Shown: piece by piece, positions 6,992 through 18,664 of the stretch
How positions within the stretch are numbered: the first letter of the stretch is position 1
Layout: every line of letters begins with the position of its first letter
NCBI RefSeq assembly: GCF_022846255.1
Contig: NZ_AP025682.1
Reading direction: 5' to 3' (one strand)
Length of the DNA stretch: 64,000 nucleotides
From: Escherichia coli
GTDB taxonomy: Bacteria; Pseudomonadota; Gammaproteobacteria; Enterobacterales; Enterobacteriaceae
The notes under the pieces: generated by a model
The model's database searches: none
Told to the model about the DNA's origin: nothing
The model's input: the letters and a program-made list of their open reading frames with translations, nothing else
Made by a program: the position numbers and the translations under genes

Positions 6992-8683
6992 ATGAAAACG
7001 CTGCTGATTATTGACGCTAATCTCGGTCAGGCACGCGCCTATATGGCGAAGACCCTGCTGGGCGCGGCGGCGCGAAAAGCAAAACTGGAAATCATCGACA
7101 ATCCGAACGACGCAGAAATGGCGATTGTTCTCGGTGATTCCATCCCGAATGACAGCGCGCTGAACGGTAAAAATGTCTGGCTGGGTGATATTTCCCGGGC
7201 AGTTGCGCACCCTGAGCTGTTCCTGAGTGAAGCCAAAGGCCATGCGAAACCTTACACTGCGCCGGTCGCTGCGACAGCACCGGTTGCTGCCAGCGGTCCG
7301 AAACGCGTAGTTGCGGTGACTGCTTGCCCGACTGGCGTAGCACACACCTTTATGGCGGCTGAAGCCATTGAAACCGAAGCGAAAAAACGTGGCTGGTGGG
7401 TGAAAGTTGAAACCCGTGGTTCTGTTGGCGCGGGTAATGCAATCACCCCTGAAGAAGTCGCAGCAGCGGATCTGGTGATTGTGGCGGCAGATATCGAAGT
7501 GGATCTGGCGAAATTTGCTGGTAAACCGATGTATCGCACCTCTACCGGTCTGGCGCTGAAGAAAACTGCGCAGGAACTGGATAAAGCGGTTGCTGAAGCA
7601 ACGCCGTATGAACCGGCGGGCAAAACTCAAACAGCGACCACTGAAGGTAAGAAAGAGAGTGCAGGCGCTTACCGTCACTTGCTGACGGGCGTCTCTTACA
7701 TGCTGCCGATGGTTGTTGCAGGTGGTCTGTGTATCGCGCTTTCTTTTGCTTTTGGTATCGAAGCGTTTAAAGAGCCGGGTACGTTGGCAGCGGCGCTGAT
7801 GCAGATTGGTGGTGGTTCAGCCTTTGCGCTGATGGTGCCGGTACTGGCAGGTTATATTGCCTTCTCCATTGCCGATCGTCCGGGTCTCACGCCGGGTCTG
7901 ATTGGCGGTATGCTGGCGGTTAGCACCGGTTCTGGCTTCATTGGTGGTATTATTGCGGGCTTCCTGGCGGGTTACATTGCGAAGTTAATCAGTACGCAAC
8001 TGAAACTGCCACAGAGTATGGAGGCACTGAAACCGATCCTGATCATTCCGCTAATTTCCAGTCTGGTGGTCGGTCTGGCGATGATCTACCTAATCGGTAA
8101 ACCGGTTGCTGGCATTCTCGATGGGTTGACTCACTGGCTGCAGACCATGGGGACTGCGAATGCGGTTCTGCTGGGGGCGATCCTCGGTGGCATGATGTGT
8201 ACTGACATGGGCGGTCCGGTAAACAAAGCAGCGTACGCATTCGGTGTGGGTCTGCTGAGTACTCAAACCTATGGCCCGATGGCGGCGATTATGGCGGCAG
8301 GTATGGTGCCACCGCTGGCAATGGGTCTGGCAACAATGGTGGCGCGTCGCAAATTCGACAAAGCGCAGCAGGAAGGTGGCAAAGCCGCTCTGGTACTTGG
8401 TCTGTGCTTTATTTCGGAAGGTGCAATTCCGTTTGCTGCTCGTGATCCGATGCGTGTGCTACCGTGCTGTATCGTTGGTGGGGCGCTGACTGGCGCAATC
8501 TCAATGGCGATTGGTGCGAAACTGATGGCACCACACGGTGGTCTGTTTGTTCTGCTGATCCCTGGCGCTATTACGCCGGTATTGGGTTACCTGGTAGCAA
8601 TTATTGCCGGTACGCTGGTGGCGGGTTTGGCCTATGCCTTCCTCAAACGCCCGGAAACACAAATAGTAGAAAAAAACGCATAA
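6992..8683 (+). CDS. fruA: Fructose PTS EIIB'BC component
   Basis: 563-aa ORF, duplicated IIB-like N-terminus plus polytopic IIC membrane domain. Confidence 0.93.
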   Translation: MKTLLIIDANLGQARAYMAKTLLGAAARKAKLEIIDNPNDAEMAIVLGDSIPNDSALNGKNVWLGDISRAVAHPELFLSEAKGHAKPYTAPVAATAPVAASGPKRVVAVTACPTGVAHTFMAAEAIETEAKKRGWWVKVETRGSVGAGNAITPEEVAAADLVIVAADIEVDLAKFAGKPMYRTSTGLALKKTAQELDKAVAEATPYEPAGKTQTATTEGKKESAGAYRHLLTGVSYMLPMVVAGGLCIALSFAFGIEAFKEPGTLAAALMQIGGGSAFALMVPVLAGYIAFSIADRPGLTPGLIGGMLAVSTGSGFIGGIIAGFLAGYIAKLISTQLKLPQSMEALKPILIIPLISSLVVGLAMIYLIGKPVAGILDGLTHWLQTMGTANAVLLGAILGGMMCTDMGGPVNKAAYAFGVGLLSTQTYGPMAAIMAAGMVPPLAMGLATMVARRKFDKAQQEGGKAALVLGLCFISEGAIPFAARDPMRVLPCCIVGGALTGAISMAIGAKLMAPHGGLFVLLIPGAITPVLGYLVAIIAGTLVAGLAYAFLKRPETQIVEKNA

Positions 8684-8740
8684 TTTCTCTTCATCATCGG
8701 GGCTGAGACATCTCTGCCCCGATGATGACAAACGCAAAAT

Positions 8741-8840
8741 TGCCTGATGCGCTATGCTTATCAGACCTACATGAACCCTGCAATATATTGAATTTTTGCG
8801 CTTTTGTAGGTCGGATAAGGCGTTTACGCCACATCCAGCA
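8741..8840. repeat. BIME: two REP (palindromic unit) copies in opposite orientation
   Basis: TGCCTGATGCGCTATGCTTATCAGACCTACA ... TGTAGGTCGGATAAGGCGTTTACGCCACATCCAGCA, matching the E. coli REP consensus. Confidence 0.8.
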
Positions 8841-8867
8841 TGAACAAAGCGCGCGTTGTCAACAATC

Positions 8868-8897
8868 TGAGGGCAGAAACATCTCTGCCCTTTTTCT
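8868..8897 (+). terminator. Rho-independent terminator of the fruBKA transcript
   Basis: GGGCAGA-aacatc-TCTGCCC followed by TTTTT. Confidence 0.75.
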
Positions 8898-8911
8898 TGC
8901 CTGCCATATTG

Positions 8912-8927
8912 TGTGTTACACATCACA
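8912..8927. promoter_or_regulatory. CRP-like binding site upstream of psuK
   Basis: TGTGTtacacaTCACA, matching TGTGA-N6-TCACA in 9 of 10 half-site positions, about 210 nt upstream of the psuK ATG. Confidence 0.45.
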
Positions 8928-9138
8928 ACTTTCTCTTTTGTTGCTGCATAAATAGACAAATTTTGTGACCGCCTTCATATCTGGCCGATTTCGTTTTTTC
9001 TGATCGATTTACATTACGTTAAACATGCTTATTATGAACATGTGTTTAAATCTGAACACGTGCTCTAATAGTCTTATTGACTGTAATGACTATTTTACCC
9101 AATTTCTTCGTTGGCAATTTATTGCCAGGGGGCGTGCT

Positions 9139-10080
9139 ATGCGCGAAAAGGACTACATAGTAATTATTGGCTCGGCGAATATTGATGTGGCTGGGTATTC
9201 ACATCATCCATTGAATTATGCGGATTCGAATCCCGGAAAAATTAAATTTACCCCAGGTGGCGTGGGAAGGAATATCGCTCATAATCTGGCGTTACTGGGG
9301 AAAAATGCCTGGCTTTTAAGTGCAGTAGGTGGTGATTTTTATGGGCAATCATTACTGGCGCAAACTAATCAATCCGGTGTTTATGTCGATAAATGCTTAA
9401 TTGTTCCGGGTGAGAATACATCCAGCTATTTATCACTGCTCGATAATACAGGAGAAATGCTTGTCGCGATAAATGATATGAGTATTAGTGACTGTATTTC
9501 TGCAGAATTTCTTGCCCAGCATCAGGAGTTTATTCGCGGTGCAAAGGTTATTGTCGCGGATTGCAACCTTAGTGAAGAGGCGCTGGTCTGGGTTCTGGAA
9601 AATAGCGGGGAAACGCCTGTATTTATTGATCCGGTATCGGCATGGAAATGCGTCAAAATCCGCGATCATCTGAGCAAAATCCATACGTTAAAACCTAACC
9701 GTCTTGAAGCCGAAACGTTGAGCGGAATTGCACTTTCCGGACGTGAAGATGTCGCAAAGGTCGCCGCCTGGTTTCATCAACACGGCCTGAACCGCCTGGT
9801 GCTGAGCATGGGAGGGGATGGCGTTTACTACAGTGATATCAACGGTGAAAGTGGGTGGTCGGCCCCTATTAAAACGAATGTCATCAATGTTACTGGGGCA
9901 GGCGACGCCATGATGGCGGGGCTGGCCTCCTGTTGGGTAGACGGTATGCCGTTTATCGATTCTGTTCGATTTGCGCAGGGATGTTCGTCAATGGCACTTG
10001 CCTGTGAATATACCAACAACCCTGAATTATCAATTGCCAATGTTACATCGTTAGTGGAGAACACAGAATGTCTGAATTAA
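9139..10080 (+). CDS. psuK: Pseudouridine kinase (PfkB family)
   Basis: Track ORF 9025..10080 trimmed to ATG 9139 (MREKDYIVIIGSANIDV..., 313 aa); ribokinase-like GGVGRNIAHNLALLG and C-terminal GAGDAMMAG motifs. Confidence 0.88.
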   Translation: MREKDYIVIIGSANIDVAGYSHHPLNYADSNPGKIKFTPGGVGRNIAHNLALLGKNAWLLSAVGGDFYGQSLLAQTNQSGVYVDKCLIVPGENTSSYLSLLDNTGEMLVAINDMSISDCISAEFLAQHQEFIRGAKVIVADCNLSEEALVWVLENSGETPVFIDPVSAWKCVKIRDHLSKIHTLKPNRLEAETLSGIALSGREDVAKVAAWFHQHGLNRLVLSMGGDGVYYSDINGESGWSAPIKTNVINVTGAGDAMMAGLASCWVDGMPFIDSVRFAQGCSSMALACEYTNNPELSIANVTSLVENTECLN

Positions 10081-11006
10081 CTCTGTCCCCTGAATTATTA
10101 CAAATATCCGCTGAAGTACAGGATGCTTTAAAAAATAAAAAACCGGTTATTGCGCTGGAATCGACCATAATTTCTCACGGAATGCCATTCCCACAAAATG
10201 CCCAAACCGCAATTGAAGTAGAAGAAACAATTCGTAAACAGGGCGCAGTACCAGCCACTATCGCCATTATTGGCGGCGTGATGAAAGTGGGCTTAAGTAA
10301 AGAAGAAATTGAATTGCTGGGCCGTGAAGGACATAACGTGACGAAAGTTAGTCGTCGTGATTTACCTTTTGTCGTTGCAGCAGGGAAAAATGGCGCAACC
10401 ACCGTTGCATCAACCATGATTATTGCAGCACTGGCTGGGATTAAAGTTTTTGCAACCGGAGGTATTGGTGGTGTGCATCGCGGAGCGGAACATACCTTCG
10501 ATATTTCTGCCGATTTACAGGAACTGGCAAATACCAATGTCACTGTTGTTTGTGCGGGGGCAAAATCTATTCTCGATTTAGGATTAACAACAGAATATTT
10601 AGAAACCTTCGGTGTACCGTTAATTGGTTATCAGACAAAAGCGCTGCCTGCGTTTTTCTGCCGAACCAGCCCATTTGAAGTCAGCATTCGTCTTGACAGT
10701 GCCCGCGAAATTGCTCGCGCGATGGCAGTGAAGTGGCAAACCGGTTTGAACGGCGGCCTGGTGGTAGCGAACCCGATCCCGGAACAGTTTGCGATGCCAG
10801 AAGAAACCATCAATGCAGCAATTGATCAAGCCGTTGCTGAAGCCGAAGAACAGGGTGTTATTGGGAAAGAGAGTACACCGTTCCTGCTGGCGCGTGTTGC
10901 GGAGCTAACCGGCGGTGATAGCCTGAAATCCAATATTCAACTGGTCTTTAATAACGCCATTCTGGCGAGTGAAATAGCCAAAGAATACCAGCGTCTCGCG
11001 GGTTAA
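10068..11006 (+). CDS. psuG: Pseudouridine-5'-phosphate glycosidase
   Basis: 312-aa ORF overlapping the psuK 3' end by 13 nt; recognised sequence. Confidence 0.9.
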   Translation: MSELTLSPELLQISAEVQDALKNKKPVIALESTIISHGMPFPQNAQTAIEVEETIRKQGAVPATIAIIGGVMKVGLSKEEIELLGREGHNVTKVSRRDLPFVVAAGKNGATTVASTMIIAALAGIKVFATGGIGGVHRGAEHTFDISADLQELANTNVTVVCAGAKSILDLGLTTEYLETFGVPLIGYQTKALPAFFCRTSPFEVSIRLDSAREIARAMAVKWQTGLNGGLVVANPIPEQFAMPEETINAAIDQAVAEAEEQGVIGKESTPFLLARVAELTGGDSLKSNIQLVFNNAILASEIAKEYQRLAG

Positions 11007-11099
11007 TTTCTGACGGGCAGAAAGCCGTCGCCCGTACTCATCAAGCATACCAAAACCTGGCGCTGACGCCGGGTTTACTGGCATGAAGGGAAAATCATT

Positions 11100-12350
11100 A
11101 TGGATATAATGAGAAGTGTTGTGGGGATGGTGGTGTTACTGGCAATAGCATTTCTGTTGTCAGTGAATAAAAAGAGCATCAGTTTGCGCACGGTTGGAGC
11201 CGCACTGCTGCTGCAAATCGCTATTGGTGGCATCATGCTCTACTTCCCACCGGGAAAATGGGCAGTAGAACAGGCGGCATTAGGCGTTCATAAAGTGATG
11301 TCTTACAGTGATGCCGGTAGCGCCTTCATTTTTGGTTCGCTGGTTGGGCCGAAAATGGATGTCCTGTTTGACGGTGCGGGTTTTATCTTCGCCTTTCGCG
11401 TACTTCCGGCGATTATTTTCGTTACTGCGCTCATCAGTCTGCTGTACTACATTGGCGTGATGGGGCTGCTGATTCGCATCCTTGGCAGCATTTTCCAGAA
11501 AGCCCTCAACATCAGCAAAATCGAATCTTTTGTTGCGGTTACCACTATTTTCCTCGGGCAAAATGAGATCCCGGCGATCGTTAAACCGTTTATCGATCGC
11601 ATGAATCGCAACGAGTTGTTTACCGCAATTTGTAGCGGGATGGCGTCCATTGCTGGTTCGATGATGATTGGTTATGCCGGAATGGGCGTACCAATTGATT
11701 ACCTGTTAGCGGCATCGCTAATGGCGATCCCTGGTGGTATTTTGTTTGCACGTATTCTTAGCCCAGCCACCGAGCCTTCGCAGGTGACATTTGAAAATCT
11801 GTCGTTCAGCGAAACGCCGCCAAAAAGCTTTATCGAAGCGGCGGCGAGCGGTGCGATGACCGGGCTCAAAATCGCCGCTGGTGTGGCGACGGTGGTAATG
11901 GCATTTGTGGCGATCATTGCGCTGATCAACGGCATTATTGGTGGAGTTGGCGGCTGGTTTGGTTTTGCCAATGTCTCTCTGGAAAGCATTTTCGGCTATG
12001 TGCTGGCCCCGTTGGCATGGATTATGGGGGTGGACTGGAGTGATGCAAATCTTGCCGGAAGTTTGATTGGGCAGAAACTGGCGATTAACGAATTTGTCGC
12101 TTACCTGAGTTTTTCGCCATATCTGCAAACGGGCGGCACGCTGGAAGTGAAAACCGTGGCGATCATCTCCTTTGCGCTGTGTGGTTTTGCTAACTTTGGT
12201 TCTATCGGTGTTGTCGTTGGAGCGTTTTCGGCTATTTCGCCAAAACGCGCACCGGAAATCGCCCAGCTTGGTTTACGGGCGCTGGCAGCAGCAACGCTTT
12301 CCAACCTGATGAGCGCGACCATTGCCGGGTTCTTTATTGGTTTAGCTTGA
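11100..12350 (+). CDS. psuT: NupC-family (CNT) nucleoside permease
   Basis: 416-aa polytopic membrane protein; near-identical paralog of the 14286..15536 ORF. Confidence 0.9.
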   Translation: MDIMRSVVGMVVLLAIAFLLSVNKKSISLRTVGAALLLQIAIGGIMLYFPPGKWAVEQAALGVHKVMSYSDAGSAFIFGSLVGPKMDVLFDGAGFIFAFRVLPAIIFVTALISLLYYIGVMGLLIRILGSIFQKALNISKIESFVAVTTIFLGQNEIPAIVKPFIDRMNRNELFTAICSGMASIAGSMMIGYAGMGVPIDYLLAASLMAIPGGILFARILSPATEPSQVTFENLSFSETPPKSFIEAAASGAMTGLKIAAGVATVVMAFVAIIALINGIIGGVGGWFGFANVSLESIFGYVLAPLAWIMGVDWSDANLAGSLIGQKLAINEFVAYLSFSPYLQTGGTLEVKTVAIISFALCGFANFGSIGVVVGAFSAISPKRAPEIAQLGLRALAAATLSNLMSATIAGFFIGLA

Positions 12351-12356
12351 GTTTCA

Positions 12357-12395
12357 TTGCCGGATGTACGCCTTATTAAGCGTTGCATCCGGCAA
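12357..12395. repeat. REP-like palindromic unit between convergent psuT and yeiL
   Basis: TTGCCGGATGTACGCCTTATTAAGCGTTGCATCCGGCAA. Confidence 0.7.
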
Positions 12396-12416
12396 TCGCA
12401 CTATTGCCAATAATTT

Positions 12417-13076
12417 TTACTGCATCATCCCGGAGAATTTATTCTCCGGGTCCATCTCCAGCGCCAGTCCTGACAACTGCTTTCTGTTTTTAATGAGATA
12501 CCCTTTCTTGCTTTTAATTAATAAACCGTCATTAATGAATTGCGCAAGAACATATAAAAGATGTCGATAAGAAACGCCTAAATACTCTGCCGCTTGCGTA
12601 TGCTTTTCGTGATAAAGATCACCTTCCTGCGAGAGTAATATAAAAGCTGCCAGGCGATTCACTAACGGAAATGATTGATTCTGAGTTAAAGAAACAATAT
12701 TACGATAATTTTTATGACTTAAGGTGACGCAGAGTTTTCGTAAAAATAGCGTGTCGTTTAATAACAACGGGCGGTAATGCTTCATAGGGAGCGCAAGACA
12801 CCAACACTCTTCAATAGCCTGCACTGCACGCGGTTCATGGTCTTTGTCGATTAACTCAATCTCGCCAATAAAACAGGGCGCGGCAAAGAAATCGATCAGC
12901 GACACGCGACCATTAGCAAGCGTGACGTAAAGCCTGGCGCGGCCTCGCGTCAGGTAAAACAGCCAGGACGGCTGTTGCCCTTCCTGCACAATGTAGTCAC
13001 GCGCTAAAAAATGAAACAGCCGCGTATCGGCTGAAACATCCGTTGAAAAGCAATCCTTAAACGCAGATTCACTCAT
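12417..13076 (-). CDS. yeiL: Crp/Fnr-family transcriptional regulator
   Basis: Track ORF trimmed to [14 protein letters not shown]... (219 aa); cNMP-binding-like fold region and C-terminal HTH ([16 protein letters not shown]). Confidence 0.85.
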
Positions 13077-13244
13077 CAATTGCTGCTTAAGATCATTATT
13101 GTGGATTTCTTTCACGATGTTTATCCGCTATGAGATTTCTCATATTTAGCATACGTACGCTGTTGTTAAGATTCAATCATCGGCCAGGTCGAATTTTCTT
13201 TGCTGTAGAAACAATAACGCAACTGGAAACAGAGGAAATAAACA

Positions 13245-14186
13245 ATGGAAAAGAGAAAAATTATTCTGGATTGTGATCCGGGTCATGATGATGCTATTGC
13301 TATAATGATGGCGGCGAAACATCCGGCGATTGATTTATTAGGTATCACCATTGTAGCGGGTAATCAAACCCTCGATAAAACATTAATTAATGGCCTGAAT
13401 GTTTGCCAGAAACTGGAGATTAATGTTCCGGTTTATGCGGGGATGCCGCAGCCCATTATGCGTCAACAAATCGTTGCCGATAATATTCACGGTGAAACCG
13501 GACTGGATGGCCCGGTATTCGAGCCGCTGACCCGCCAGGCAGAAAGTACCCATGCGGTGAAATACATCATTGATACCCTGATGGCAAGCGATGGCGATAT
13601 CACTCTGGTGCCGGTTGGTCCACTTTCAAACATCGCGGTGGCAATGCGTATGCAACCCGCAATCCTGCCCAAAATCCGTGAAATTGTGCTAATGGGCGGC
13701 GCTTACGGTACAGGCAACTTCACGCCATCTGCCGAGTTCAACATCTTTGCCGACCCGGAAGCAGCCCACGTAGTGTTCACCTCTGGCGTTCCATTAGTGA
13801 TGATGGGCCTCGATCTCACCAACCAGACCGTTTGCACCCCGGACGTGATTGCCCGGATGGAAAGGGCAGGCGGCCCTGCCGGAGAGCTGTTCAGCGACAT
13901 CATGAACTTCACTCTCAAAACCCAGTTCGAAAACTACGGTCTGGCTGGCGGCCCGGTACATGACGCCACCTGTATCGGTTATCTGATTAACCCCGATGGC
14001 ATTAAAACCCAGGAGATGTACGTCGAAGTGGACGTCAACAGTGGCCCTTGTTACGGGCGTACCGTCTGCGACGAGCTGGGCGTTCTTGGCAAGCCCGCCA
14101 ATACAAAAGTCGGCATCACTATTGATACCGACTGGTTCTGGGGATTAGTCGAAGAGTGCGTGCGCGGCTACATCAAAACCCACTAA
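13245..14186 (+). CDS. rihB: Pyrimidine-specific ribonucleoside hydrolase
   Basis: 313-aa ORF with the N-terminal DCDPGHDDA nucleoside-hydrolase signature. Confidence 0.92.
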
Positions 14187-14198
14187 GTGGTGATATCA

Positions 14199-14232
14199 AG
14201 CCGGGTCTGTATCGCAAGATGCAGGCCCGGCT
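14199..14232 (+). terminator. Imperfect hairpin downstream of rihB (possible attenuator/terminator)
   Basis: AGCCGGGTCTG...CAGGCCCGGCT stem with one mismatch, followed by ATTTCT. Confidence 0.4.
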
Positions 14233-14285
14233 ATTTCTGATGGGCAGAAAGCCGTCGCCCAAAATGACATGAAGAGATAATAACT

Positions 14286-15536
14286 ATGGATGTCATGAGA
14301 AGTGTTCTGGGAATGGTGGTACTGCTGGCAATTGCGTTTTTGCTGTCAGTAAACAAGAAGAAGATCAGCCTGCGTACCGTTGGCGCGGCGTTAGTGTTAC
14401 AGGTCGTGATTGGCGGCATTATGCTTTGGTTACCGCCAGGGCGTTGGGTCGCAGAAAAAGTCGCTTTTGGCGTGCATAAAGTGATGGCGTACAGCGACGC
14501 GGGTAGCGCATTTATCTTTGGTTCTCTGGTCGGACCGAAAATGGACACCTTATTTGATGGCGCAGGATTTATCTTTGGTTTCAGGGTATTACCGGCAATT
14601 ATCTTCGTTACAGCACTGGTGAGTATTCTCTACTACATCGGTGTGATGGGGATCTTAATTCGCATTCTCGGCGGTATATTCCAGAAAGCATTGAATATCA
14701 GCAAGATTGAGTCATTCGTCGCGGTCACTACCATTTTCCTCGGGCAAAACGAAATTCCGGCAATCGTCAAACCCTTTATCAATCGTCTGAATCGCAATGA
14801 ATTATTTACAGCGATTTGTAGCGGGATGGCCTCGATTGCTGGTTCGACAATGATTGGTTACGCCGCACTGGGCGTGCCTGTGGAATATCTGCTGGCGGCA
14901 TCGTTAATGGCGATCCCCGGCGGGATCTTGTTTGCCCGCCTGTTAAGCCCGGCAACAGAATCTTCGCAGGTTTCCTTTAATAACCTCTCTTTCACCGAAA
15001 CACCGCCAAAAAGCATTATTGAAGCCGCTGCGACAGGGGCAATGACCGGGCTGAAAATCGCCGCAGGTGTGGCGACAGTAGTGATGGCATTTGTCGCCAT
15101 CATTGCGTTAATTAACGGTATTATCGGCGGCGTTGGCGGCTGGTTTGGCTTTGAACATGCCTCGCTGGAGTCCATTTTAGGTTACCTGCTGGCCCCACTG
15201 GCGTGGGTAATGGGTGTTGACTGGAGTGATGCGAATCTTGCCGGGAGTTTGATTGGACAGAAACTGGCAATAAATGAATTTGTCGCTTACCTCAATTTCT
15301 CACCTTATCTGCAAACAGCTGGCACTCTGGATGCTAAAACCGTGGCGATTATTTCCTTCGCGTTGTGCGGTTTCGCTAACTTTGGTTCTATCGGGGTGGT
15401 GGTGGGGGCGTTTTCTGCGGTTGCGCCACACCGTGCACCGGAAATCGCCCAGCTTGGTTTACGCGCGCTGGCGGCGGCGACACTTTCTAACCTGATGAGT
15501 GCAACCATTGCAGGATTCTTTATTGGCTTAGCGTAG
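14286..15536 (+). CDS. nupX: NupC-family (CNT) nucleoside permease, paralog of psuT
   Basis: 416-aa ORF, about 85-90% identical to the psuT product along the full length by eye (last ~40 residues identical). Confidence 0.9.
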   Translation: MDVMRSVLGMVVLLAIAFLLSVNKKKISLRTVGAALVLQVVIGGIMLWLPPGRWVAEKVAFGVHKVMAYSDAGSAFIFGSLVGPKMDTLFDGAGFIFGFRVLPAIIFVTALVSILYYIGVMGILIRILGGIFQKALNISKIESFVAVTTIFLGQNEIPAIVKPFINRLNRNELFTAICSGMASIAGSTMIGYAALGVPVEYLLAASLMAIPGGILFARLLSPATESSQVSFNNLSFTETPPKSIIEAAATGAMTGLKIAAGVATVVMAFVAIIALINGIIGGVGGWFGFEHASLESILGYLLAPLAWVMGVDWSDANLAGSLIGQKLAINEFVAYLNFSPYLQTAGTLDAKTVAIISFALCGFANFGSIGVVVGAFSAVAPHRAPEIAQLGLRALAAATLSNLMSATIAGFFIGLA

Positions 15537-15550
15537 TGCGCGAGTTATGA

Positions 15551-15584
15551 GCCGGATAAGATGTAGTCAAGCGTCGAATCCGGC
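15551..15584. repeat. REP-like palindromic unit between nupX and yeiI
   Basis: GCCGGATAAGATGTAGTCAAGCGTCGAATCCGGC. Confidence 0.7.
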
Positions 15585-15591
15585 AACATTG

Positions 15592-16680
15592 TTACACCAT
15601 CGGCACTAATGAAAGCGCGTTATCGGCAGACAGGGTAGGGTTGTTTAAGCTGCCGCTGGCGCGTGAAATTGCCGCGCAGGCCATCGCAAAACGGGCGCTG
15701 TCACGGAAATTGTTTCCCTCCAGAAAGCTATATACCAGGCCCGCCATAAAACCATCGTCAGCACCAAAACTGTCTACTGTCGTATGCGCTGGCGCTGTCA
15801 GCAAAAATTGCTCTCCATCCTTTTCGCTGCAATAAACTGACTCATCGGGCAAATAAACAAACAGTTGCTGAACGCCTTGCTGATGCAACGCATTCACTGC
15901 GGCATTACGGTCAGCATCGCTGGTGATCGCCTGTCCCCATAAAATTTCCAGCTCCGGTAAAGTGGGTTTCAGGGTGTGAATATGCGCCAGCCAGTGTTTG
16001 ATTTTGCCCGCTTTGAATTCTGAAACGGTATCGACAAACACCGGGATTTCATCAGCGAGGGTAAAGACCCATTCCAGCGCCTCGGCTGTCAGGTTACAAT
16101 CAGCAAGTACCACGCCCGCATGACGAAGTAAATCGCGCGACCCGTTCAGTAGTTGCGGTGTCAACTGATCCAGCAGATGGGTATCGTTAATCGCCAGCAC
16201 GGTTTGATCGTCTCGATTGGCAATTGCCAGATACGTCGATGTGCTTTGGCCATGTAAACGAACGCAGCCGGAGACATTCACGCCGGCGCGGCGCGTTTCT
16301 TCCAGGAGCATTTCGCCATAAAAGTCATCGCCAATCACTGAAAGCAAATGGACGTCGCGGCCTAACAGCGCCAGATTGTGGGCGATATTGCGTCCAACGC
16401 CGCCTGCCGAGCAATGAATGGTACCGGGATGAGAAGCCGCTTGCGGGTAACGGATATCCGCCATCCCGCGAATATCCATATTGATTGTCCCCACCACTAC
16501 GCAGTATTCCTGCTCGGTGAGAATGTAACCTTTGCCTTTAATCCGGCCTTTGCGCATTAAATCCATAATATGCGCCGCAACGCGCGAACGGCTGATTTGC
16601 AGCATATCCGCAATTTCGTTCTGTTGAATCAGCGGGTTACGCCGTAAAATTTTAAGAATCTGCTTTTCCCTGTCGTTCAT
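15592..16680 (-). CDS. yeiI: Putative kinase: N-terminal winged-helix HTH fused to a PfkB-family (pseudouridine-kinase-like) carbohydrate kinase
   Basis: 362-aa ORF; N-terminus QNEIADMLQISRSRVAAHIMDLMRKGRI (HTH-like), then GGVGRNIAHNLALLG as in PsuK; start lies 3 nt after the nfo stop. Confidence 0.88.
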   Translation of the reverse strand: MNDREKQILKILRRNPLIQQNEIADMLQISRSRVAAHIMDLMRKGRIKGKGYILTEQEYCVVVGTINMDIRGMADIRYPQAASHPGTIHCSAGGVGRNIAHNLALLGRDVHLLSVIGDDFYGEMLLEETRRAGVNVSGCVRLHGQSTSTYLAIANRDDQTVLAINDTHLLDQLTPQLLNGSRDLLRHAGVVLADCNLTAEALEWVFTLADEIPVFVDTVSEFKAGKIKHWLAHIHTLKPTLPELEILWGQAITSDADRNAAVNALHQQGVQQLFVYLPDESVYCSEKDGEQFLLTAPAHTTVDSFGADDGFMAGLVYSFLEGNNFRDSARFAMACAAISRASGSLNNPTLSADNALSLVPMV

Positions 16681-16683
16681 CGA

Positions 16684-17541
16684 TCAGGCCACCGCTTTTT
16701 CAGTTTGTTGCGCTTTCAGCCAGGCGATCTCTTCTGCCCAGATATCCGGGTTGATGGTTTCAAGGATCAGCGGAATGCCGTCGAAACGGTCGTCCTGCAT
16801 GATCCAGCGGAACGCATCATGACCGATATTGCCTTCACCGAGGCTATGATGGCGGTCAACGCGGCTGCCAAAGGTGCTTTTCGCATCGTTAAGGTGCATC
16901 CCGCGCAGATACTTAAAGCCGACAATACGGGCAAAATCCGCGAACGTTTTCTCGCATTCGGCAGAAGTACGCAAATCATACCCGGCAGCGAAAGCATGGC
17001 AGGTATCAATGCAGACGCCGACGCGGGATTTATCTTCCACGCCGTCGATAATCGCCGCGAGATGTTCGAATTTAAACCCTAAGTTACTGCCCTGACCGGC
17101 GGTGTTTTCAATCACCGCTGTCACACCTTGAGTTTTATCCAGCGCAATGTTGATGGATTCGGCAATACGCGCAAGGCAATCCTCTTCTGAAATCTGCATC
17201 AGATGGCTGCCAGGGTGGAAGTTGAGCAAAGAAAGCCCCAGCTGTTCGCAACGCTGCATTTCATCTATAAACGCATCGCGCGATTTTTCCAGAGCTTCAG
17301 CGACCGGATGTCCGAGGTTAATCAGATAACTGTCGTGGGGAAGAATTTGCGCCGATGTGTAGTGATATTTTTCACAGGCGGCTTTGAATTCATCGATGGT
17401 TTGCGTCGTGAGCGGTGCGGCACGCCACTGACGTTGGTTTTTGGTGAACAAGGCAAACGCGGTTGCGTCGATTTCGGCGGCGCGAATTGCGGCATTTGCC
17501 AGACCGCCAGCAGCACTAACGTGCGCTCCAATGTATTTCAT
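16684..17541 (-). CDS. nfo: Endonuclease IV (AP endonuclease)
   Basis: 285-aa [16 protein letters not shown]... TIM-barrel AP endonuclease, recognised sequence. Confidence 0.95.
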
Positions 17542-17614
17542 GCGAGGACTCCTGTTAAACCCGCTGGAGGAAAACGATAATGATAGCGGGTTAACAGGAG
17601 CAAGATGTAGTGGT

Positions 17615-18664
17615 TTATGCGATGACGCTTTGAATCACATAGTTAATCGCACCACCACCAACAATCAGCCAGGCAAACAGTACCAGTGCCATCAGCAGAG
17701 GTTTCGCCCCGGCTTTTTTCAGCGCGCTGACGTGAGTGGTCAGACCCAGCGCCGCCATCGCCATTGCCAGCAGGAAGGTATCCAGCGTTACCAGCATGTT
17801 CACCACGCTCTGCGGTAACAGGTGGAACGAGTTAAAGATGGCAACTACGATGAACAAGATGGCAAACCACGGAATAGTGATTTTGCTTTTCTCGCCGCTG
17901 TTCGCCCCAGACAGCTGTTTAACACGCGCCGCCAGCAGGATGAGGAACGGAGCCAGCATCATCACGCGCAGCATTTTGGAAATAACTGCTGCGTTTTCTG
18001 CATCCGGGCTGATGGCATGACCTGCCGCCACCACCTGCGCCACTTCGTGCACAGTAGAACCAATGTAGATACCGAAAGTTTCCGGACTAAACCATTGAGA
18101 CATCAGCGGATATATCGCCGGGTAGAGGAAAATCGCCACGGTCCCGAAGATAACAACGGTTGCAACAGCCACGGTTACTTTACTGGCTTCCGCTTTCACT
18201 ACCGGCTCAGTCGCCAGTACCGCGGCAGCACCACAGATACTGCTACCGGCACCGATCAACCAGCTGGTGTGCTTATCCAGACCAAACACTTTCTGCCCCA
18301 GGAAGCAAGCCAGCAGGAAGGTACTGGACAGCGTCAACACGTCAATGATGATCCCACTGATACCGACATCGGCAATTTGCGAGAACGTCAGACGGAAGCC
18401 ATAAAGAATGATACCCAGACGTAATAAATATTGCTTGGCAAACAGCACACCACCGTCACAGCTTTTCCAGATGTGCGGATAGATGGTGTTGCCTAAAACC
18501 ATCCCCAACAAGATTGCGAGGGTGAGGGCACTAAACCCGGCACCCGCAACCGCGGGAATGGAACCACCCCACAGGGCGACCCCGGTGATAACTGCACTCA
18601 GGGCTAACCCCGGAATAAAATGCCACAGTGTACGATGTTGTTTCTGTAAGGTGATATTCGTCAT
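17615..18664 (-). CDS. yeiH: UPF0324-family inner membrane protein
   Basis: 349-aa polytopic membrane protein; divergent from the LysR gene yeiE. Confidence 0.88.

Follow-up and report, generated by a model that had tools for sequence, protein, structure and literature searches.

Judged by its sequence, the 19-nt block that E. coli carries upstream of both psuT and nupX forms the core of a small stem-loop, which we named P1. The element is intercistronic, specific to two transporter leaders and deeply conserved, its stem covaries and it shows a strand bias. From this we infer that P1 most likely works in the mRNA. Our main reading, to which we give a probability of about 0.5, is a cis-acting RNA hairpin of the transporter leader with a putative partner that recognises it and would tune the transporter cistron separately from the enzyme genes.

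The window, the whole 64-kb stretch of DNA that we analysed, covers the E. coli fruBKA-psuKGT-yeiL-rihB-nupX-yeiI-nfo region. Here psuG is located at 10068-11006 (stop codon 11004-11006), psuT at 11100-12350, rihB at 13245-14186 and nupX at 14286-15536, while yeiL is on the minus strand. By blast with nine proteins that flank the leaders in the window, the neighbouring genes were assigned to psuK, psuG, yeiL, rihB, yeiI, nfo and fruA. The original prediction was based on two identical copies of the 19-mer GGGCAGAAAGCCGTCGCCC. We found exactly two on the plus strand of the window, at 11015-11033 and 14242-14260, and no further site even with up to 3 mismatches. Shuffling the window gave an expectation of 0.01 matches, and two or more were reached in none of the 100 shuffles. 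The sequence ATTTCTGA(C/T) directly 5' of both copies was confirmed, and so was the 66-nt distance between the block and the psuT ATG (11100). The distance to the nupX ATG (14286) had been given as 26 nt and was measured as 25 nt.

The main difference between the two leaders is a 41-nt indel. The flanks had been described as otherwise divergent and this is partly true, however, the leaders can also be aligned over about 30 nt at the ribosome-binding site (CATGAAG[G/A]GA.AAT). The ribosome-binding sites and start codons are at 11085-11102 (GAAGGGA, psuT) and 14271-14288 (GAAGAGA, nupX), both on the plus strand. The PsuT and NupX proteins are 88% identical and their coding sequences 79% identical overall. 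Since 27 of 28 positions match in the noncoding leader block, compared with 52.5% identity at third codon positions, the block does not behave as neutral sequence.

In the psuG-psuT leader, P1 spans 11013-11035 on the plus strand, as delimited by the sequence, the minimum free energy fold, RNAalifold and a covariance model (34.1 bits). It pairs A11013-U11035, C11014-G11034, GGGC (11015-18) with GCCC (11030-33) and G11020-C11029, with A11019 bulged, and its loop in E. coli reads A-G-AAA-G-C-C-G-U-C. The P1 of the rihB-nupX leader (14241-14261, plus strand, 34.5 bits) has the same 19-nt core with U14241-A14261 as the closing pair, and its 3' end is 25 nt from the nupX ATG. The predicted GGGC/GCCC hairpin was thus recovered, but it is stronger than had been assumed, because A-U and C-G (psuT) or U-A (nupX) are added outside and a G-C pair inside, giving folding energies of -11.1 and -8.3 kcal/mol. 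The fold z-scores alone are modest (-2.1 and -1.7). The general form of P1 is a stem of 6-8 bp and an 11-nt loop, A-G-NNN-G-C-N-G-U-C. The stem begins 6 nt past the psuG stop codon in the window and 6-10 nt past it across the psuT-type leaders. P1 is not an intrinsic terminator, since it is followed by GUACUC (psuT) or AAAAUG (nupX) instead of a U-tract and is absent from the terminator scan.

At the genome level the motif is not frequent. BLAST of a 33-mer against 5,426 complete E. coli genomes matched 5,424 of them, with a median of 2 places per genome, which are both transporter leaders, and a maximum of 3. With this copy number P1 lacks the many copies of a dispersed repeat of the REP/BIME, ERIC or MITE type. 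The matched places number 10,814, six of which are on plasmid-labelled records, and a few genomes have three.

We then ran a covariance model built from the P1 hairpin on the window and on 453 kb of related loci. Both sites in the window scored about 34 bits on the plus strand, while the next best match reached 10.8 bits and the reverse strand of the psuT site 7.9 bits. All matches but two in the 453 kb were positioned directly 3' of psuG or rihB and upstream of the transporter gene, and all those at transporter leaders were on the plus strand. The two remaining ones were weak chance matches. One match came from a locus where psuT itself is deleted. In the covered stretches of the psuK and rihB promoter regions the model found no copy of P1. 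A metagenome scan with the pattern GGGCAGNNNGCDGTCGCCC proved too unspecific: among the 120 matches listed all were due to chance, most were in G+C-rich contigs and none was beside a NupC-type gene.

To follow the leaders across species, 100,044 species genomes were scanned with the two transporter proteins, which led to 46 Enterobacterales species. Blast of the flanking genes showed two conserved modules, psuK-psuG-transporter (35 leaders) and yeiL (divergent)-rihB-transporter (21 leaders), which occur together in six loci. The order around the element is psuK-psuG-[P1]-psuT in the first and yeiL/rihB-[hairpin]-[P1]-nupX in the second. P1 was found ahead of the NupC-type transporter gene in 54 of these 56 leaders from the 46 species, in the form N-GGGCAG-NNN-GC-N-GTCGCCC-N', including leaders from Pantoea, Izhakiella, Ewingella and Salmonella enterica subsp. 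arizonae. The orthologous leaders of both genes therefore conserve it. The mean pairwise identity was 0.93 at the 15 conserved P1 positions, compared with 0.94 at codon position 2, 0.53 at codon position 3, 0.41 at the four variable loop positions and 0.37 in the 15 nt upstream of P1. Seven loop bases are conserved to the level of codon position 2. A protein-database search for distant orthologues returned relatives of at least 88% identity only. A search of representatives gave one useful distant psuKGT locus (L183, 66% protein identity), which has no P1, and two further loci (46-48% identity) with different gene contexts.

The specificity and the conservation of orthologous leaders in 46 species support the original view of a shared functional element. 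It is extremely improbable that P1 has no function and was left over from the duplication or copied by recent gene conversion. Some sequence exchange is hinted at by the Escherichia copies, which also agree at four loop positions and eight upstream bases that are variable outside this genus. These eight bases, the ATTTCTGA octamer (11006-11013 at psuT and 14233-14240 at nupX, plus strand), are common to both Escherichia copies and lie in the poorly conserved columns upstream of P1. From the pairwise identities, the chance of this extra agreement is roughly 1e-5. It goes beyond purifying selection alone and may reflect patchy gene conversion or parallel selection. However, the core is conserved across Enterobacterales families and in both leader types, although synonymous sites are near saturation, and the 50% identity at third codon positions argues against a very recent horizontal spread. 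Nor does one conversion tract agree with the closing pairs: those of the two E. coli copies remain typical of the respective orthologue group, a difference that such a tract would have erased. Recent gene conversion as the whole explanation was therefore rejected.

Next, we looked at how the stem changes. RNAalifold gave a single helix, composed of GGGC/GCCC and the closing pair. In an alignment of 48 sequences the closing pair is C-G in 29, U-A in 10 and U-G in 4, and the next pair outward is A-U in 13, G-C in 11 and G-U in 2. The inner G-C pair becomes G-U in 6 sequences, and in one genome (L022) a core G-C is swapped for U-A. The covariation score was reached by none of the 500 column shuffles, and the fraction of paired cells halves when the 3' partners are slid. 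The core pairs contain 12 G·U cells and 4 A·C cells. Most stem pairs are invariant and the covariation is carried by the two outer pairs. Since many of the outer-pair changes track the psuT/nupX split, the independent events are few. Within E. coli, strain JJ2434 carries GGUGGGC in place of GACGGGC, which turns A-U into G·U and C-G into U·G. As both changed pairs become wobbles, this allele keeps the pairing only in plus-strand RNA. The identity band of JJ2434 in the 33-mer BLAST contains about 1,040 E. coli records, with the allele itself sequenced in JJ2434. As a hairpin of the transcribed strand that is found in orthologous leaders and shows compensatory changes, P1 has the features of a generic conserved cis-acting mRNA leader stem-loop, as far as sequence comparison can tell.

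The original prediction had left the choice between a regulator-binding site and an RNA element. RNA is favoured over a DNA site because P1 is strand-specific and intercistronic, its stem covaries, its polymorphisms preserve wobbles, its conserved inner bases are asymmetric, and it is absent from the covered operon promoter stretches and has no promoter-like site nearby. Nevertheless, two regulators encoded in these loci could be candidates for reading P1 as a DNA operator, at an internal promoter or as a roadblock before the transporter gene. YeiI, which combines a winged HTH with a PfkB domain, adjoins psuT or nupX in all psuKGT loci, and YeiL, of the CRP/FNR type, adjoins rihB in all nupX-type loci. 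GGGC/GCCC on the outside forms a palindrome, and an internal promoter is conceivable given the RpoS-RNA polymerase SELEX peak inside psuG (PMC5493296). However, the symmetry is limited to the outer 4-6 bp and the inner bases have no dyad symmetry, so that P1 does not have the layout of an operator for a dimeric HTH protein. The covariation of the closing pair between two sites of one genome and the G·U changes are expected of RNA instead. In addition, P1 is found where yeiI is missing (S. arizonae, Buttiauxella, Pluralibacter) and where yeiL is missing, and in some lineages it is replaced by unrelated hairpins. We consider the operator unlikely.

The nearby yeiI gene (15592-16680, minus strand) encodes an N-terminal winged HTH (PF13412, E=2.7e-11) and a PfkB kinase domain like that of PsuK. 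In each psuKGT locus examined the gene faces the transporter gene in convergent orientation, and YeiI is a candidate nucleoside-responsive regulator-kinase.

P1 has conserved surroundings in the psuT leader. A single-stranded linker (11036-11052, plus strand) follows it, which reads ACTCATCAAGCATACCA in E. coli and (G)ATATCAgACATACCAAAA as the consensus of other genera; the consensus for the psuT-type leaders is AUAUCAgACAUACCAAAA. The linker is followed by a second hairpin, T (11053-11076, plus strand, AAACCUGGCG-CUGA-CGCCGGGUUU), which folds between P1 and the psuT ribosome-binding site. The 17-20 nt of the linker separate P1 from T and the two share no bases, so the arrangement differs from a RAT-type antiterminator (BglG/SacY/LicT). 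All 35 psuT-type leaders carry T. Most nupX-type leaders are without it, L027 being the one in which it was seen. An A-tract, a 7-bp GC-rich stem and a UUU tract make T terminator-like, but its T-run was too short to pass the terminator scan. Across 27 leaders 95.8% of its cells are paired, with no compensatory changes, and a conserved U·G wobble pairs only in plus-strand RNA. T is at best a weak terminator and could be a weak internal attenuator.

The nupX leader of the K-12 type has neither linker nor T. In the K-12-like window (14241-14288), in E. whittamii and in two Escherichia sp. genomes this leader is 12 nt shorter and has lost the conserved AUCAGAC linker. E. coli SCPM-O-B-8794 carries a longer allele (L002 7140-7204, …GCCCATAACGGGATCAGACCTGACATG…) in which part of the linker is kept. 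On the other side of P1, directly 5' of ATTTCTGA, a 15-bp terminator-like hairpin follows rihB (H0, 14199-14232, plus strand). Most nupX-type leaders have a hairpin at this position, and its sequence differs in every genus. Because H0 keeps its structure and not its sequence, the constraint on the P1 sequence exceeds that on just any hairpin.

This bears on whether P1 needs a specific partner at all. It might be purely structural and determine mRNA processing or stability where the enzyme cistrons give way to the transporter cistron. If the A/U-rich linker were cleaved, P1 could protect the 3' end of the psuKG or rihB mRNA or the 5' end of the transporter mRNA. A hairpin, a single-stranded A/C/U-rich linker and a second hairpin resemble known intercistronic processing sites. 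Moreover, unrelated perfect hairpins stand in the place of P1 in Hafnia (L035) and in the psuT leader of Entomohabitans (L030), both followed by the same linker, and the distant L183 locus has its own hairpin after psuG and a different leader. Since P1 is replaced in these three loci, a generic hairpin can suffice, and the boundary hairpin is probably the older and more general feature. A purely structural role would not predict seven loop bases conserved like codon position 2 next to a drifting H0, and we regard it as rather unlikely. From the comparison of leaders, P1 appears to be the sequence-specific version of the boundary hairpin across much of Enterobacterales.

Rearranged loci were also seen. 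In E. coli 13C1065T (L182 900-2454) an IS1A is positioned between a truncated psuK and a truncated rihB, psuG-psuT-yeiL is deleted and the strain is left with a single P1 copy, 5' of nupX. In Escherichia sp. MOD1-EC7003 (L028 1749-1777) psuT is absent and P1 is kept directly after psuG.

The layout of P1 and its linker loosely recalls preQ1-I-type pseudoknot aptamers. By this analogy, P1 alone or with the linker might be a very small riboswitch aptamer for pseudouridine, uridine, cytidine or uracil, gating T or the translation of the transporter. Conserved unpaired hairpin bases followed by a conserved A-rich single strand 5' of nucleoside transporter genes, and in psuT before T, would agree with this. 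The likeness to preQ1-I-type riboswitches extends to the size (about 25-45 nt), the conserved loop bases, the A-rich tail and the position before a transporter or salvage gene. However, RNAalifold gave the P1 stem alone, and inspection found no alternative pairing of P1 or the linker with T or the ribosome-binding site. A mutual-information scan for loop-linker covariation or a pseudoknot showed clade effects and no Watson-Crick-type signal. As there is neither competing pairing nor loop-linker covariation, a classical riboswitch or attenuator switch is unsupported. The K-12-type nupX leader, which has no linker or T, and the replacement of P1 by unrelated hairpins also speak against an aptamer, and P1 is very small for a selective one. 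We find it very unlikely.

Scans with Rfam 15 agree with this, as no family matched P1. In E-value mode positions 8000-18000 of the window gave noise only, with isrJ over the leader at 18.9 bits (gathering score 37, E=9.4). For the L006 leader the same mode returned only the generic terminator part of isrJ (E=0.25), and at the gathering threshold 15 orthologous loci returned only a tRNA.

Returning to our main reading, a cis-acting hairpin with a partner, P1 would be transcribed in the leader of the transporter cistron, between psuG and psuT or between the terminator-like hairpin of rihB and nupX. It probably goes back to the leader of the ancestral transporter gene, and purifying selection would have retained it in both copies. 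A trans-acting partner, most likely an RNA-binding protein, would read it sequence-specifically; we propose this because both the stem and the seven loop bases are constrained. By acting on read-through, processing/stability or translation of the downstream cistron, the partner would set how much membrane transporter is made, separately from the enzyme genes upstream. In the psuT leader, P1 may act jointly with the single-stranded linker and the weak terminator-like T. Our analysis brought up no candidate partner. A more specific version, which we hold tentatively, is that P1 is the recognition hairpin of a new post-transcriptional regulator, either a protein or a ligand acting directly on the RNA, that tunes pseudouridine/pyrimidine nucleoside uptake apart from the catabolic enzymes.

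P1 can be compared with several known systems. Like the rph-pyrE intercistronic attenuator of E. coli (and the pyrBI leader), it is a hairpin a few nt past a stop codon in a pyrimidine-related operon. Its 5' arm starts 6-10 nt past the stop and would therefore be overlapped by a ribosome that terminates at psuG. Unlike rph-pyrE, P1 has no U-tract, T is about 50 nt downstream and beyond the reach of that ribosome, the nupX-type P1 is not beside a stop codon and there are no evident UTP-sensing U-runs. The PyrR binding loop of the Bacillus pyr leaders, including that of the uracil permease gene pyrP, serves protein-dependent attenuation and is a model for a hairpin read by a protein. Like P1 it is small, has conserved loop bases, precedes a terminator and is placed in leaders or between cistrons of pyrimidine genes, a transporter gene among them. 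Its sequence is unrelated, and P1 overlaps no antiterminator or terminator, so the switching logic is absent. We know of no PyrR in Enterobacterales.

The 5' stabilisers and intercistronic processing hairpins of the ompA 5' UTR, malE-malF and pap are, like P1, stable hairpins at the edge of a cistron with a single-stranded A/U-rich stretch behind them, and both would be expected to give differential expression within one operon. Those hairpins are constrained in structure and not in loop sequence, in contrast to P1. Together with preQ1-I, where P1 differs in having no detected pseudoknot pairing or covariation, no alternative for an expression platform and no Rfam riboswitch match, these systems resemble P1 by analogy, and P1 departs from each of them in the defining features that could be tested.

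Other resemblances were tried and dropped. Pairing of the Spot 42 small RNA with the linker gave duplex energies no better than shuffles in 4 of 5 linkers, with inconsistent predicted sites. A leader peptide or uORF was rejected because an ATG is formed only in the nupX-type P1 (A followed by the U-A closing pair), without a ribosome-binding site; the psuT-type has ACG, GCG or CCG. Read in that frame, the bases that vary would be those of codon positions 1 and 2, and the conserved bases those of position 3. By eye and against consensus sequences, sigma-54, CRP/FNR, CytR, ops and boxB sites did not fit P1 in spacing or sequence.

We also searched for earlier traces of P1. The K-12 RefSeq annotation shows nothing in the psuG-psuT and rihB-nupX intergenic regions, and the literature searched on these genes makes no mention of the psuT, nupX, rihB or yeiL leaders or of a P1-like motif. 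One E. coli dataset of 5'/3' transcript ends reports none at the psuT and nupX leaders, where the genes were possibly not expressed, and the RIL-seq supplements have no entries for these leaders. In Hfq-CLASH data CpxQ forms hybrids with psuT and nupX, and CyaR does so with nupX; all of them map to coding sequence and not to P1 (PMC7213987 supplement). The psuT site corresponds to 11116-11166 of the window (psuT codons ~6-22). This suggests small-RNA control of the psuT and nupX mRNAs that is unrelated to P1.

If the more specific version with a new regulator holds, P1 would be a previously unrecognised regulatory RNA motif of E. coli K-12, common to two operons. Its position at the enzyme/transporter boundary of both points to a control of transporter dosage that is independent of the enzymes. 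Little is understood of the nucleoside transporters PsuT and NupX, and such control would matter for the salvage of pseudouridine and pyrimidines in the gut and for the current engineering of E. coli for pseudouridine production (PMC13090712, PMC10552469). P1 is also compact and easy to mutate, and it makes clear predictions in the bacterium that has been studied best. If P1 is only a structural stabiliser, the finding is an ordinary one.

Several other features were observed in the window. Upstream of psuK, a CRP-like site (TGTGT-TACACA-TCACA) and a second TGTGA half-site were seen by eye at 8911-8928 and 8950-8975, and the 14-bp palindrome ATGAGATTTCTCAT is located between yeiL and rihB (13131-13144, also by eye). 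As operators for transcription factors of the two operons, these sites are more likely than P1. Two hairpins with the common core ACATCTCTGCCC lie 3' of fruA, at 8694-8727 and 8870-8900. The second, GGGCAGAAACATCTCTGCCC followed by TTTTT, has the same first nine bases as P1, yet it is an ordinary terminator and gave no hit with the P1 model. Weak REP-like Rfam matches (8763-8845) are positioned between these two hairpins.
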